Source: Candidatus Aenigmatarchaeota archaeon
Lineage (GTDB): Archaea; EX4484-52
NCBI GenBank assembly: GCA_023137195.1
Contig: JAGLPV010000028.1
Span: forward strand, 1-27,105
Direction: 5' to 3'
DNA length: 27,105 nt
The notes beneath the pieces were generated by a model. It saw only the letters and a program-made list of their open reading frames with translations. It made no database searches and was not told the origin of the DNA. Shown here piece after piece: positions 2,155 to 20,160 of this stretch. Position numbers and translations under genes: made by a program. How positions within the stretch are numbered: the first letter of the stretch is position 1; each line of letters starts with the position of its first letter.

Positions 2155-2357
2155 AGTGATTTTTCAAAATTATTCAAGGCTTCATCGCTCAAATCATCCC
2201 ATATGTTAAGTTCCTGCTTTAAGTTTATTTGTTTTTGGATTGTGTCAATATAAAGCAAAACTGCTCTTTCCATAATCTCTGTCTCATCGAAACCAAGCGT
2301 TTTTGATGCATTTTTCAGTTTTTCACTTGTTGTTTTTGTTAGTTGCATTCTTGCCAT
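2151..2357 (-). CDS. Putative antitoxin of the MazF toxin (RHH-like N-terminus, acidic C-terminus)
   Basis: ATGA overlap with mazF; C-terminal WDDLSDEALNNFE; likely start ATG 2357, about 25 bp after a TATA box. Confidence 0.72.
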   Translation of the reverse strand: MARMQLTKTTSEKLKNASKTLGFDETEIMERAVLLYIDTIQKQINLKQELNIWDDLSDEALNNFEKSL

Positions 2358-2378
2358 AGTAGTAATGGACGACAAAAA

Positions 2379-2388
2379 TTTATATAAT
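2379..2388 (-). promoter_or_regulatory. Archaeal TATA box for the antitoxin-mazF operon
   Basis: TTATATAAA on the minus strand about 25 bp upstream of ATG 2357; a homologous copy lies at 1772-1781 upstream of the hicB-like gene. Confidence 0.55.
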
Positions 2389-2389
2389 T

Positions 2390-2550
2390 ATCCACGGAAG
2401 ACAATCCACGGGAAGACACAAGAAGACACAGGAACATAGAGGAAGCGAATAAATCGGTTTCTATCGGTTCCGTGCGTTCTGTAGATTAGATTGGTTTTTT
2501 AACTGTTTCTTTCCCTCCAGTTCCCGTGGGTTCCGTGCGTTCCTGTGGAT
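2390..2550 (+). repeat. Palindromic element R1 (compound/nested)
   Basis: Two left ends (ATCCACGG at 2390 and 2404) and two right ends (GGTTCCGTGCGTTCTGTAGAT 2466-2486; TTCCCGTGGGTTCCGTGCGTTCCTGTGGAT 2521-2550). Confidence 0.9.
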
Positions 2551-2589
2551 AAAAGAGAATGGTTAAAAAATGTAAGGGTAAAAAGGTAT

Positions 2590-2979
2590 ATGGAAGATGC
2601 GTCTGCCAAGAAATGGTTATACAATGAGTTGACTGATAAAATTATTGGTGCGGCGATAGAGGTTCATCGTCAATTGGGGACTGGTTTTTTGGAGTATGTT
2701 TACGAGGAGGCTTTGTGCCATGAACTGGATTTGAGAAAAATTTCTTTTGAACGTCAAAAGGAACTGGATATTCATTATAAAGAATTGGTGATACCTCGAA
2801 AATACAAACCGGATTTGATTGTAGAGGATAAGATTATAGTTGAATTGAAGGCAATATCTGTGTTGTGTGGGATTGAAGAGGCGCAGTTGTTGAATTATCT
2901 GAAAGCTACGAATATGCGGGTCGGGTTGTTGTTGAATTTCGGCAGGAAGACTATCGATGTGAGGAGGAAAATTCTATGA
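2590..2979 (+). CDS. GxxExxY family protein (PD-(D/E)XK nuclease-like)
   Basis: LTDKIIGAAIEVHRQLGTGFLEYVY, PDLIVEDKIIVELKA, QLLNYLKAT...GLLLNFG. Likely start is ATG 2590 (the ORF-track GTG 2545 lies inside repeat R1). Confidence 0.93.
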   Translation: MEDASAKKWLYNELTDKIIGAAIEVHRQLGTGFLEYVYEEALCHELDLRKISFERQKELDIHYKELVIPRKYKPDLIVEDKIIVELKAISVLCGIEEAQLLNYLKATNMRVGLLLNFGRKTIDVRRKIL

Positions 2980-2981
2980 CA

Positions 2982-3081
2982 ATCCACGGGAAGACACAGG
3001 AAGGCACAGGAAGGCGTAGGAACCTAGGGGAAAAAGAATCACTTTCTCATGGTTCCCGTGGTTTCCGTGCGTTCCGTGGAT
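2982..3081 (+). repeat. Palindromic element R2
   Basis: AATCCACGG (2981-2989) / CCGTGGATT (3074-3082) perfect terminal inverted repeat; left arm (GxCACAGGAA)n, right arm TTCCCGTGGTTTCCGTGCGTTCCGTGGAT. Confidence 0.92.
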
Positions 3082-3103
3082 TTTATTGGGGGAGTGAGTT
3101 AAG

Positions 3104-4537
3104 ATGAATCAGGATGAATTGAAAGTCATATTACAAAAAGGAGAAGGGCAATTTATAGAATTTAAAGAATCTGCAAAGGGTCTTGACAAAGAGATAGTTG
3201 CTTTTGCAAATGCGGGCGGAGGAAAACTCTTTGTAGGGATAAGTGATAAGAATGAAATAAAGGGAATTAATATTACAAATAAGCTAAGATCTGATGTGCA
3301 GGATATTGCGAGGAATTGCGACCCTTCTGTGAAAATTGATTTAGAGGAAATAGATAATATTATGCTGGTGAGGGTAGAAGAAGGAACAGACAAGCCGTAT
3401 AAATGCAGGGAAGGATTTTATTTAAGACAGGGCGCAAATTCCCAGAAACTAAAGAGAGATGAAATAATTGATTTTGCGATAACTGAAGGCAAAATTAAAT
3501 TTGATTGCCAGATAAACAATAAGTTTGATTTTCTCCAGGATTTTGACGAGGAAAAATTAGATAGATATCTGGAACTTGCAGGAATAGAAAAAAATATTAG
3601 TGTGGAAAGTACATTGGTCAATTTGGGTGTGGCTGTAAAAAAGGGGAAAGAATTTTTCTTTAATAATACAGGGGTTCTTTTTTTCTCCAAAAACCCGGGA
3701 AATTTCTTTTTTTCATCAAAAGTTATCTGCGTCAATTACCAGACTGATGAAAAAGTGAATATCCTCGACAGGAAAATATTTGACCAGGGGCTTATTGATA
3801 ACATAGAAGAGGCAATTAATTATGCAAAGAAGCACATTGATACTGAATTTGAAATTAAAGATTTGGCAAGAAAAGAGATACCTCAATATCCATATGAAGC
3901 AACCAGAGAATGTATAGTCAATGCTATTATGCATAGGGATTATTTTGACGATACGGGGGATATTTTAATAGAGATATTTAAGCACAAAATAGTTGTGTCC
4001 AATCCCGGTGGTCTGGTTAGTGGATTGAAGCCTGAAGATTTTGGAAAAGTCAGCAGGACAAGAAATACTCTTGTTGCTGACCTGCTATTGAGGACAATAT
4101 ATGTTGAAAAACTTGGGACTGGTATCAATAGGATAAAAAACCATATGGAATCGGCAAATCTTCCTGCTCCTTTATTTGAGTACGACAAGCATTCTTTTTT
4201 TGTAACTTTGTTTGATAAGAGTTATGTGGAAGGCGAGAAGGTAGGAGAAAAGGTAGGAGAAAAGGTAGGAGAAAATCAAAAGAAAATATTGAGATTAATT
4301 AGGGAAAATGCATATATTACCTATAATGAACTGTCAGAGAAGATTAAGATAAGTGAAAAAAGCATTTATCAGAATATCTCAAAATTAAAGGAGAAAAAAA
4401 TCATTGAAAGAATTGGTCCGGACAAAGGGGGCTACTGGAAACTATCCACGGAAGACACAGGATGCGGGAAAATCAATAGATTTTCTGCACATTCAACTTC
4501 GTTGAATGACACACAGGAACATAGAGGAAGCGAATAA
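3104..4537 (+). CDS. AlbA_2 (Schlafen-like) domain + RecG-C/HATPase-like domain + C-terminal HTH protein (often annotated ATP-dependent DNA helicase RecG-like or transcriptional regulator)
   Basis: GEGQFIEFKE...AFANAGGG.LFVG; REcIVNAIMHRDY; SNPGGL; RN.LvADL; EKLGTGI; HTH ending RIGPDKGGYW. Confidence 0.9.
   Translation: MNQDELKVILQKGEGQFIEFKESAKGLDKEIVAFANAGGGKLFVGISDKNEIKGINITNKLRSDVQDIARNCDPSVKIDLEEIDNIMLVRVEEGTDKPYKCREGFYLRQGANSQKLKRDEIIDFAITEGKIKFDCQINNKFDFLQDFDEEKLDRYLELAGIEKNISVESTLVNLGVAVKKGKEFFFNNTGVLFFSKNPGNFFFSSKVICVNYQTDEKVNILDRKIFDQGLIDNIEEAINYAKKHIDTEFEIKDLARKEIPQYPYEATRECIVNAIMHRDYFDDTGDILIEIFKHKIVVSNPGGLVSGLKPEDFGKVSRTRNTLVADLLLRTIYVEKLGTGINRIKNHMESANLPAPLFEYDKHSFFVTLFDKSYVEGEKVGEKVGEKVGENQKKILRLIRENAYITYNELSEKIKISEKSIYQNISKLKEKKIIERIGPDKGGYWKLSTEDTGCGKINRFSAHSTSLNDTQEHRGSE
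4232..4275 (+). repeat. In-frame 12-bp tandem repeat (GEKV)x3
   Basis: GAAAAGGTAGGA units encoding GEKVGEKVGEKVGE in the linker before the HTH. Confidence 0.85.
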
Positions 4538-4598
4538 ATAGGGTTTCTGACTGTTTCTTTTTCACCGGTTCCCGTGGGTTCCGTGCGTTCCCGTAGAT
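4444..4598 (+). repeat. Palindromic element R3 with internal double-hairpin module
   Basis: ATCCACGGAAGACACAGGA...TTCCCGTGGGTTCCGTGCGTTCCCGTAGAT; internal GAAAATC-AATA-GATTTTC and CATTCAAC-TTC-GTTGAATG. Confidence 0.93.
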
Positions 4599-4772
4599 AT
4601 CCACGGAAGACACAGGATGCGGGAAAATCAATAGATTTTCTGCACATTCAACTTCGTTGAATGACACACAGGGACATAGAGGAAGCGAATAAATAGTTTT
4701 CTAACCGTTTCTTTCCCATCGTTTCTTATCGTTTCTCATCGTTTCCCGTGGGTTCCGTGCGTTCCTGTGGAT
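4599..4772 (+). repeat. Palindromic element R4, tandem copy of R3
   Basis: First 98 nt are 97/98 identical to R3; the spacer carries ATCGTTTCYY x3 (4718-4747); ends GTTCCTGTGGAT. Confidence 0.93.
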
Positions 4773-4801
4773 TGTTTTCAGGGCGAGTGAATTGGGGCGT
4801 C

Positions 4802-4817
4802 GGTAAAGATTTATAAT
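4802..4817 (+). promoter_or_regulatory. BRE + TATA box for the flippase gene
   Basis: GGTAAAGATTTATAAT about 22 bp before ATG 4838; a similar GTAAAGATATTTATAAT lies at 6001-6017 before the acetyltransferase. Confidence 0.55.
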
Positions 4818-4837
4818 TCTACATCTCTAAACATGTT

Positions 4838-6004
4838 ATGAAAGCAAAACTAAAATCCCTGTTGCAAAGCGACCTGTTAATCAATTCAGGGATGATATTT
4901 TCTGCTTCGTTTTTCGGGGCGTTGTTTATGTTTGTTTCTAATTTGGTTCTTTCCCGGGTGTTTGGTCCTGCTGATTTTGGGATGTATAAGACTGTGTTGG
5001 GGTTGTTTATGTTTGTTCCTGCGCTGGTTGATTTCGGGGGGTCGGCTACGTTGACTAAGTATATTGCGGAGTTTTTGGCGAAAAAGGAAGAGAGGAAGAT
5101 TAATTATCTTGTGCGGTTCTTTTTTAGTGTTAAGGTTACTGCGTCTTTTGTTGTGGGGGGGCTGGCTTATTTGTTCCGGTCTGAGATTGCGGTTGTGTTT
5201 TTGAAGGATGCGTCTTTGGCTTATCTTGTTTTGCCGGGGGCGGTTCTGGCTGTGTTTGCTGTATTTGAGTTGTCGAAGCCTGTCGTTACGGGGTTTCAGA
5301 AGTTCAAACTGTTGAGTGTGTCTAACTTTCTTAGTGCCGGGGCGATAGGGGTTGCTTCTGTGGTGCTTGGGTATTATTGGGGGGTGTATTGGGCTATTGT
5401 CGGATGGGCTGTCGGGTATTTTATCGGGAATTTGATTAATTTTAAGTTTATGGTTGATTGGGGGTTGTTCCGGAAGGTTGAAAGGTTTGATATAATGAGC
5501 GTGTTGAGGAGGTATAGTTTGCCTATGTATGGGATGTATCTTTTGAATATGTTTAATGTTGTGATTATTCCTGTTTTGTCGTTGTTTTTTGCGCCCGTGT
5601 TGATTGGGTATTATGGGTTTGCTTGGACTTTTTATGCCGGGATTTTGTTGATTCCTGCGGCTTTATCAAGAGTTTTATTTCCTAAAATATCGGAATTGAT
5701 TGGGAGGAATGATTTGAGAGGGGCTCAAAATATTCTTAAAAAGATATTTTTGTATTATAGCATAATAGTTTTGGTTGGGATAGTCGGAGTTTTATTCCTT
5801 TCTGAATTTGTTGTTATGTCGGTTGCTCCTATGTATTTGCCTGGTTTGTTCATTTTTAAGGTATTGAATATTACTGGGCTATTGTTAGGGTATTTGTTTA
5901 TATTGAATGGTTATTATAATGGAACGGGTCAGGTTAAAAAGAGCATATTGTCTATGGTAATTTACAATGTGTTGTTGCTGATAGTGAGTTTTTGGATTAT
6001 GTAA
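4838..6004 (+). CDS. Oligosaccharide flippase (Wzx/MOP family)
   Basis: About 11-12 hydrophobic segments; SRVFGPADFGMY, DFG...LTKYIAE, GYY..A...IP.ALSRVLFPKIS. Confidence 0.88.
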   Translation: MKAKLKSLLQSDLLINSGMIFSASFFGALFMFVSNLVLSRVFGPADFGMYKTVLGLFMFVPALVDFGGSATLTKYIAEFLAKKEERKINYLVRFFFSVKVTASFVVGGLAYLFRSEIAVVFLKDASLAYLVLPGAVLAVFAVFELSKPVVTGFQKFKLLSVSNFLSAGAIGVASVVLGYYWGVYWAIVGWAVGYFIGNLINFKFMVDWGLFRKVERFDIMSVLRRYSLPMYGMYLLNMFNVVIIPVLSLFFAPVLIGYYGFAWTFYAGILLIPAALSRVLFPKISELIGRNDLRGAQNILKKIFLYYSIIVLVGIVGVLFLSEFVVMSVAPMYLPGLFIFKVLNITGLLLGYLFILNGYYNGTGQVKKSILSMVIYNVLLLIVSFWIM

Positions 6005-6035
6005 AGATATTTATAATTGAGGAATAGTTGATAAT

Positions 6036-6557
6036 ATGATTGAAGTAAATTCTCCCAGAAAAGGAGTGTCCACAACAGCACGAATTATATTGTTATTTTT
6101 CGAGGGATATGAATTGATTAAGCAAAAGGCAAGATACCTTCTTTTAAAACGCGTTTTCAAAAAATGCGGTCGGAATGTAATTATTAGGAAAAATGTGTGG
6201 TTTGTGTATCCAGAGTATATTGAGGTAGGAGACAATGTTTCTATTAATAATTCTTGTTTTTTTGAAGGGGGCAGTGGCATAAAAATAGGAAATTGTGTGC
6301 GTATGGCACATTGTGTTTCTATTATTTCAAGAAATCATTCATTTGCTAAAAGAGACATACCCATCGTAGAACAGGAATTTACTGGGGCTGTTGTTAGTAT
6401 AGGAGATGATGTTTGGTTAGGAGCAAAGGTCACCGTATTGCCAGGTGTGTCTATTGGAAAAGGGTCTGTTATAGGGGCTAATTCTGTTGTGACGCATGAT
6501 ATTCCACCATATTCTGTGGCTGTTGGTTCTCCGGCTAAAGTAATAAAAAAAAGATGA
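6036..6557 (+). CDS. Hexapeptide-repeat (LbH) sugar O-acyltransferase
   Basis: IGDDVWLGAKVTVLPGVSIGKGSVIGANSVVTHDIPPYSVAVGSPAKVIK. Confidence 0.92.
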   Translation: MIEVNSPRKGVSTTARIILLFFEGYELIKQKARYLLLKRVFKKCGRNVIIRKNVWFVYPEYIEVGDNVSINNSCFFEGGSGIKIGNCVRMAHCVSIISRNHSFAKRDIPIVEQEFTGAVVSIGDDVWLGAKVTVLPGVSIGKGSVIGANSVVTHDIPPYSVAVGSPAKVIKKR

Positions 6558-18154: not shown

Positions 18155-18193
18155 TATATAAACGTATGGTTTTTTACTATTTTTAAGTGGTAA
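18155..18193 (-). promoter_or_regulatory. TATA box plus upstream operator-like palindrome (copy A of a 39-bp duplication)
   Basis: TTTATATA on the minus strand about 29 bp before ATG 18126; 36/39 identical to 20120-20158. Confidence 0.6.
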
Positions 18194-18207: not shown

Positions 18208-18373
18208 ATTCACGGAACGCACGGAACCCACAGGAAGCGGATTCATTCTCTTCTTCTATGTTCTTGTGAGTTATTCAATGAAATTGAATATGCAGAAAAT
18301 CATAGAAAGTCATCGGTCTTTGACCGATGTGCGGAAAATCAAAGATTTTCCTGCATTCCCGTATCCTGTGGAT
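18208..18373 (-). repeat. Palindromic element R5 (same family as R1-R4, minus orientation)
   Basis: Reverse complement reads ATCCACAGGATACGGGAATGCAGGAAAATCTTTGATTTTCCGCA...CACAAGAACATAGAAGAAG...TTCCTGTGGGTTCCGTGCGTTCCGTGAAT. Confidence 0.9.
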
Positions 18374-20119: not shown

Positions 20120-20160
20120 TATATAAATGTATGGTTTTTTACTATTTTTTAGTAGTAAAA
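20120..20160. promoter_or_regulatory. Copy B of the 39-bp promoter/operator duplication; TTTTACTA-N8-TAGTAAAA palindrome
   Basis: 36/39 identity with 18155-18193; perfect 8-bp arms at 20137-20144 and 20153-20160. Confidence 0.55.

Follow-up and report, generated by a model that had tools for sequence, protein, structure and literature searches.

The double hairpin that recurs in repeat elements of contig JAGLPV010000028.1 from a Candidatus Aenigmatarchaeota archaeon (27,105 nt, analysed over its whole length and hereafter called the window) displays genuine compensatory changes, and our results suggest that it is probably a variable internal block of a genus-specific, non-coding mosaic repeat, i.e., a hybrid between a MITE (a transposable element of miniature size with inverted repeats) and the type of repeat represented by repetitive extragenic palindromes (REP) and bacterial interspersed mosaic elements (BIME). 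Our best reading is that the module is neither a dedicated non-coding RNA nor an independent element nested in the repeat. The window, whose DNA occurs in cold-seep metagenome runs, is contig C21 of the source genome, which is that of a DPANN archaeon (G000; 1.42 Mb, 35% GC, 57 contigs, 84.8% complete), and the comparison covered three other genomes of the same genus (G001 to G003) and 38 other genomes of the order.

Covariation in the hairpin module

Three of the five family elements in the window (R1 to R5) contain the module. In R3 (4444..4598, forward strand), a full element with the inverted ends ATCCAC...GTAGAT, hairpin 1 (4463..4489) is made of TGCGGGAAAATC (4463-4474), the loop AATA and GATTTTCTGCA (4479-4489), with a 12-nt 5' arm and an 11-nt 3' arm, one unpaired base and one G-T pair, and it is directly followed by hairpin 2 (4490..4508; CATTCAAC-TTC-GTTGAATG), with an 8-bp stem and a 3-nt loop. 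R4 (4599..4772, forward strand) is a second copy in tandem to R3, with hairpin 1 at 4618-4644 and hairpin 2 at 4645-4663, its module lying 155 nt beyond that of R3. In R5 (18208..18373, reverse strand), hairpin 1 (18330..18355; TGCAGGAAAATC-TTT-GATTTTCCGCA) precedes an internal unit (18311..18329; CATCGGTC-AAA-GACCGATG) and a terminal unit (18272..18301), the latter composed of the prefix GATTTTCTGCA and of TATTCAAT-TTC-ATTGAATA (stem 18290-18272). The original prediction, made from the letters of the window alone, had placed the hairpins at positions that match letter for letter on both strands, and it had assigned the module to R3, R4 and R5 and not to R1 or R2, in agreement with our alignment of the five elements, in which R3 and R4 have one unit each and R5 has two. 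Its description of hairpin 1 can be refined: the hairpin is not a perfect palindrome, since the 5' arm is one base longer (12 nt against 11 nt) in 31 of 31 copies, the unpaired base being a purine in 29. In the window, the pattern GAAAATC-N3/4-GATTTTC is observed three times against 0.01 expected from shuffles, and the covariance model described below finds units on this contig at four places only, all in R3, R4 and R5.

A unit (35-38 nt) opens with the prefix GATTTTCYGCA, after which the two arms of an 8-bp stem enclose a loop of 3 nt (rarely 5 nt), and it closes with AC and a short linker. The census of the source genome used a profile search, which identified 49 units, and then a covariance model built from 48 units of this genome, which identified 51. 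Their stems fall into recurrent types, namely CATTCAAC with the loop TTT or TTC (type a, found in R3), TATTCAAT with TTC (type b, the terminal unit of R5), both single-pair intermediates between a and b, CATCGGTC with AAA (type c, the internal unit of R5), TATTGGTC with AAA, CATCTGTC with AAA (type d) and TATTCGAT with TTC. The two compensatory pairs that had been reported between the CATTCAAC and TATTCAAT stems are real, and a manual count on the alignment indicates that linking the stem types takes no fewer than nine separate double changes.

In the alignment of 48 units (which excludes one unit of C15 that lies at the end of the contig), 96.7% of the 360 stem cells of hairpin 2 are paired compared with 78.0% in shuffles, none of the 500 shuffles reaching this value, and changes on both sides are found at 6 of the 8 pairs; note that these cell counts overstate the number of independent events, the copies being related. 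When the partner was slid by one to three columns, pairing fell to 17-43%. Since the seed set had been chosen for pairing, unit sites were also ascertained by their prefix alone: 35 of 146 such sites are followed by an 8-bp hairpin with a 3-nt loop and at most one mismatch (26 of them perfect) and the rest resemble background, while only 11 of 4,997 random GCA sites have such a hairpin. In addition, two stretches were retrieved from metagenomes with a pattern that covered no more of the stem than its first three bases, and one of these displays a new and fully paired stem (TATTTTAC-TGC-GTAAAATA). The pairing compared with shuffles, the slid controls, the prefix-ascertained sites and the metagenome stem all support the earlier statement that structure rather than sequence is maintained. 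Hairpin 1, for which the alignment left out four leaderless arrays (C4_555, C7_11628, C39_5527 and C48_8451) and included two internal leader hairpins, provides weaker evidence of covariation than hairpin 2, with 93.8% of pairing against 89.7% in shuffles and most of its double changes coming from one variant. A second type of hairpin 1 (GCGAAAAAAGC...GCTTTTTTGCA) differs at two pairs, both of them compensated.

Matched changes could also arise without any constraint if template switching within the palindrome at replication copied one arm from the other. Such a process would fit the high proportion of perfect hairpins among the prefix-ascertained sites (26 of 35), the variation limited to a few discrete, perfectly paired types, and the mismatches of hairpin 2 (5 G-T, 7 A-C and 5 other among 384 cells), which favour neither strand, an A-C cell being a G-T on the other strand. 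However, efficient correction would erase both the unpaired base and the G-T pairs that the adjoining hairpin 1 keeps, the former in 31 of 31 copies, and would not account for the non-palindromic prefix, loop and suffix, which are also conserved in the 48-unit alignment (with YGCA before the stem and AC after it), nor for the uncorrected mismatches in the copies of the sister species. We therefore regard template switching in place of constraint as very unlikely; it concerns how pairing is kept, and it is compatible with mobile DNA.

The module within its host element

The host element starts with ATCCAC and finishes with GTGGAT or a near variant, and two to four phased 10-nt CACRGGAAS subrepeats behind each end form imperfect inverted arms of ~30-40 nt, so that terminal inverted repeats are present (ATCCACRGGAAS... 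compared with ...GTTCCGTGCGTTCCNGTGGAT). The module is located between two subrepeats of the left arm and occupies one arm, rarely both, units in both arms being found only at C3:525-791. It begins with a purine-rich leader (ATGCGRGAAAATC, of which the ATGCGGGA part is often duplicated), followed by a loop of 3-5 nt and by one to four head-to-tail units. Hairpin 1 thus forms between the leader and the prefix of the first unit, the 3' arm of hairpin 1 in R3 serving at the same time as this prefix, and the prefixes of later units are unpaired. When R3 is folded as a whole (z -3.4), a long hairpin results from which the two small ones branch off sideways, and as single-stranded DNA the two hairpins of the module form on either strand (z about -6).

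It had been suggested that the double hairpin is a second small mobile palindrome that homes into the first. The module is indeed optional, the number of units varies between orthologous spacers, identical unit types are found at many loci, and the same 8 nt (ACACAGGA) stand on both sides of the R3 module, resembling a duplicated target. However, these 8 nt belong to the 10-nt subrepeat of the host itself, and the proposal finds no support in the context of the arrays: the host CACRGRA subrepeat comes within 22 nt after 28 of the 33 arrays, the ATGCGRGA leader stands before 25 of them, and no module was observed outside the host repeat, the two arrays devoid of leader and of upstream or downstream subrepeat being degenerate copies. 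The composition of the arrays is informative in the same respect. Identical stem types recur across loci and neighbours inside an array differ; the last unit of multi-unit arrays is of type a or b in 11 of 11 cases, types c and d never being last, and the order d, c, then a or b is common to three arrays at different loci, as expected from copying of whole arrays with their host and subsequent trimming. Moreover, the C or T of each prefix is associated with the type of the next hairpin, so that prefix and hairpin vary together. Therefore, the order of the units, the linkage of prefix and type, and the host context fit arrays that were copied along with the host and shortened or lengthened afterwards at the recurring prefixes, and fit less well a free element homing in; an independent miniature element of this kind appears highly improbable to us.

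Position relative to genes and a possible role in RNA

The repeat is mainly found behind genes. All units of the source genome are intergenic except that of R3, an element that overlaps the 3' end of a gene: the last 31 codons and the stop of the open reading frame (ORF) 3104-4537 are the first 94 nt of R3 (4444-4537), hairpins included. The product of this ORF is an AlbA_2 / HATPase_c_4 / HTH protein, and its sequence also contains, at 4228-4275, three tandem in-frame 12-nt copies (GGTAGGAGAAAA). Using a crude ORF model (at least 110 aa), 24 unit-bearing spacers were classed as convergent (15), co-directional (7) or divergent (2), while 6 loci were at contig ends or otherwise unassignable. 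Compared with the background, in which 183 of 1,072 spacers are convergent, this corresponds to an enrichment with an odds ratio of 8.7 (p 5.7e-7).

The ends of the family are also placed close to stop codons. Indeed, 15 of 55 ends lie within 3 nt of the stop of an inward-reading gene (six at 0, six with a one-base overlap and three at +1/+2), compared with 14 of 488 other AT[CT][CT]AC sites outside ORFs and with 114 of 5,000 random intergenic positions, i.e., about ten times more often than control sites. As examples, the left end of R2 (2982..3081, forward strand), a short element without the hairpin module, is 2 nt past the stop of a PDDEXK_3 gene, R5 starts one base past the stop codon (18377-18375) of an epimerase gene, and at C57:20868-21121 one element occupies the whole gap between two convergent stop codons. 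TA or TAA is often found before the element end. Matching flanks on both sides were seen in 2-3 of ~10 elements read by eye, with one empty site that is heavily diverged. No link with tRNA genes was found, since none of 32 lies within 400 nt of a unit or an end.

Such a placement raises the question of a role in RNA, in which read-through transcripts would end in hairpins 1 and 2, stopping transcription or blocking exonucleases, and the module would be a portable 3'-end cassette working in both directions between convergent genes. This would agree with the enrichment between convergent genes and the rarity between divergent ones, with element ends that abut stop codons, and with the position of the first unit, which is found in sense 15-75 nt behind the gene reading into it at 22 of 31 loci. 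One variant of hairpin 1 carries a T6 run on both strands. In hairpin 1, G-T cells outnumber A-C cells (18 against 5, or ~10 against 2 without three degenerate copies, in copies that are related and in which the register of the unpaired base is ambiguous), and this excess together with the asymmetric unpaired base, which is kept, hints at a strand-specific single-stranded form that could be RNA.

However, the sense orientation is uninformative in convergent spacers because it is set there by the geometry of the element, and in co-directional spacers the split is 5 sense to 2 antisense. Hairpin 2 displays no wobble bias, both strands fold equally well, and the elements R1 (2390..2550, forward strand) and R2, which have no module, occupy the same kind of place. 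Nothing was found in the window with Rfam 15 at gathering score beyond the 23S rRNA end (1-339), nor on the elements with Rfam at E-values up to 1 over 2350-4850, and a scan for terminators of bacterial type, whose coverage does not extend to archaeal signals, flagged neither hairpin. Among the sequencing runs listed for positions 2300-6100 of the window, none is an RNA run. The structured non-coding RNA offered by the original prediction as its other option is thus disfavoured by the missing Rfam match, by the lack of strand bias in hairpin 2 and by the partly decayed copies of the sister species, and we consider a function of the module in RNA unlikely.

Copies in related genomes

The covariance model found 51 matches in the source genome, 7 in G003 (the sister species), 1 weak match in G001 and none in G002 or in the 38 other genomes of the order. 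On inspection, the weak match of G001 has neither the hairpin nor the host context and was rejected as a unit; in this genome, a single isolated arm adjoins a TAA stop. The end motif is subject to the same genus limits as the units, and the repeat is therefore confined to the genus in the genomes searched. Scanning the genome_contigs collection with the hairpin-1 pattern returned 51 stretches, of which one belongs to the family (L110, in a metagenome-assembled genome (MAG) labelled DPANN) and the remaining 50 come from bacteria, where they are either coding DNA or an unrelated repeat of Clostridia, and none of them has hairpin 2. Two scans of viral_contigs gave one chance match each, in apparently unrelated DNA without the repeat architecture.

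The unrelated bacterial repeat has a common hairpin (GTGCAAGAAAATC-N3-GATTTTCTGCACAT) followed by a conserved stretch of ~70 nt; it occurs at 11 loci in one Clostridia MAG (L095, L098, L099, L112, L114-L116, L120, L124, L135 and L136), with further loci in two other Bacillota MAGs. A second recurrent module (ATCCACAAGATTCTTGCGATTAACACAAGAT, often after GAACCGTTGAA) was observed at no fewer than 13 loci of the source genome, often adjoining the family described here (e.g., C8:18625, C14:7395, C17:34909, C26:9895, C28:78, C34:15010, C37:11005/24994/32655, C38:2202, C42:2976 and C47:99), and it is also present in G003.

At 5 of the 7 loci of G003, the element is also found in the orthologous spacer of the source genome, and the numbers of units differ between orthologous spacers (4 against 1 at C3 and 3 against 1 at C38). 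One element of G003 (~204 nt) faces a gap of 22 nt in the source genome, another one faces 1.4 kb of other DNA, and several hairpin stems of G003 are imperfect and partly decayed. Taken together, the shared loci, the differing unit numbers and the imperfect stems indicate that the family predates the split between the two species, gains and loses units and whole copies, and is not uniformly preserved. Note that, for R3 to R5, the search for orthologous empty sites in G001 to G003 gave no clean comparison, as gene order differs.

Mobility and resemblance to known repeats

If the double hairpin is, as we favour, an internal block of a selfish-looking repeat that moves as DNA, the elements would invade the tiny spacers located behind genes, frequently at a TAA stop or beside it, and their arrays may gain or lose length when recombination or copying takes place between the 11-nt prefixes that recur in them. 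The hairpins would then be kept as the single-stranded substrate of a putative copying or processing activity, or of replication itself, and any role at the 3' end of mRNA would be a by-product.

Two candidate partners were considered and rejected. G003 carries, on C64 (L067 1501-1671), a C-terminal fragment of an IS200-type Y1 transposase, with a frame of 71 aa and one TAG inside, which is decayed and has no family repeats beside it. The PDDEXK_3 gene (GxxExxY-type nuclease; 2545-2979, with a probable start near 2592) lies between R1 and R2 and is the single copy of the source genome, but it was not found in G001 to G003, though G003 carries the repeats.

Several observations speak against a mobile DNA repeat. 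Reading the flanks of the elements gave no consistent target-site duplication. Within the source genome (84.8% complete), no match was found to the Y1 transposase (PF01797), to TnpB-type proteins or to DDE_3, none of the listed family ends lies near the four DDE_Tnp_1 matches, and no ORF of transposase size stands between paired family ends. Only one presence/absence difference was found, its boundaries blurred by divergence, and most copies are old and stable because 5 of the 7 loci are common to both species. The inflated cell counts of hairpin 2 and the strand asymmetry of hairpin 1, both given above, belong to the same side of the balance.

Among the closest known systems are the REP elements, BIMEs and REPINs (REP doublets forming hairpins) of bacteria, which the cited extracts describe as mobilised by RAYT (Y1) transposases (PMC2817692, PMC3116915, PMC3733652). 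As in these systems, insofar as the extracts portray them, the repeats studied here are short extragenic hairpins in tens of copies, lineage-specific and located behind genes, with several stem classes combined as mosaics. With ~50 units of 35-38 nt, the family has the size and copy number of a REP, i.e., a 20-40 nt imperfect palindrome that is extragenic and present in many copies. In contrast, REP palindromes carry a conserved GTAG or CGTC tetranucleotide at one end in the account extracted from PMC3733652, whereas the stem is preceded by YGCA here and no GTAG/CGTC tag is seen; the units are head-to-tail on one strand, and not alternating as in the BIMEs and REPINs so described; and they are embedded in one arm of a larger element with inverted ends, in an archaeal host. 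Furthermore, a RAYT gene (PF01797) is flanked by REP repeats in the genome according to the consulted portion of PMC2817692, while here PF01797 has no match in the source genome and the fragment of G003 is decayed and away from the repeats. The module thus departs from the REP family, as outlined in these extracts, in three of the four features tested (tag, RAYT and alternating layout).

The host element resembles MITEs, in the form summarised by the available parts of PMC10969869 and PMC3184786, in being non-coding, 100-180 bp long, bounded by imperfect terminal inverted repeats and intergenic, often at contig ends, one copy being fused to the end of a gene. Unlike MITEs so defined, its ends are phased 10-nt subrepeats and its interior is an expandable hairpin array, and its membership is incomplete because no target-site duplication is demonstrable and the search for a parent insertion sequence bearing these ends found none in this incomplete genome. 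A CRISPR array (short palindromic repeats, clustered and regularly interspaced) was rejected: units are spaced by 37-39 nt, with only 5-9 nt of conserved linker between them and no unique spacers.

In the attC sites of integrons, conservation bears on the fold more than on the sequence, and one strand is marked by a base left unpaired on one arm. By analogy, the hairpins described here may be compared with attC sites in both respects, but their units are arrayed within a repeat and not between gene cassettes, and no cassette or integrase context was seen, a search for integrases not having been made.

A bolder proposal, which we judge quite unlikely, is that the units are the handles of a structure-specific machinery, independent of RAYT, in these host-dependent archaea; the leader hairpin, through its bulge, would label the strand, and the hairpins with an 8-bp stem and a 3-nt loop would be recognised in single-stranded DNA or RNA; delivery to the TA(A) of stop codons would rebuild the stop and give convergent genes a shared 3' end.

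Features around the repeats

The window opens with the 3' end of an archaeal 23S rRNA (1-339; Rfam match). Between this end and R1, a Fic-domain gene, a weak HicB-like gene (below the Pfam cut-off) and a MazF/PemK-like toxin gene are found at 661-2154, and the first five kilobases of the window look like an accessory island. In addition, a direct repeat of 39 nt (92% alike) occurs in two spacers, at 18155-18193, just past the right end of R5, and at 20120-20158.

Many contigs of the source genome end at repeats of the element family. Similarly, four cold-seep metagenome runs (X1-X4) compared with positions 2300-5000 yielded short pieces only, broken at the repeats; no clean variant of R3 or R4 could be read in these pieces, and the most plausible source of their joints is other family copies.

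Conclusions

The main value of these results is a negative one: the compensatory changes are genuine, but since they belong to repeat DNA, annotation of the module as an RNA gene should await expression data. The repeats are also a practical nuisance, as assembly contigs break at them. Research on small palindromic repeats has concentrated on a few bacteria and has hardly touched archaea. REP-like palindromes are reported from genomes of Euryarchaeota and Crenarchaeota in the extracted text of PMC12306157, which does not mention DPANN. Our full-text literature search found no account of extragenic palindromic repeats in DPANN archaea, and none on repeats in Aenigmarchaeota among the matches listed.

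Should the units prove to be handles of a dedicated machinery, which we judge quite unlikely, the repeat would be a domesticated cassette for gene ends, portable and of a type that has yet to be described in archaea. In genomes that are tiny and tightly packed, a repeat family that fills the spacers behind genes, and here reaches stop codons and even encodes the final 31 codons of one gene, forms a visible part of the genome architecture.

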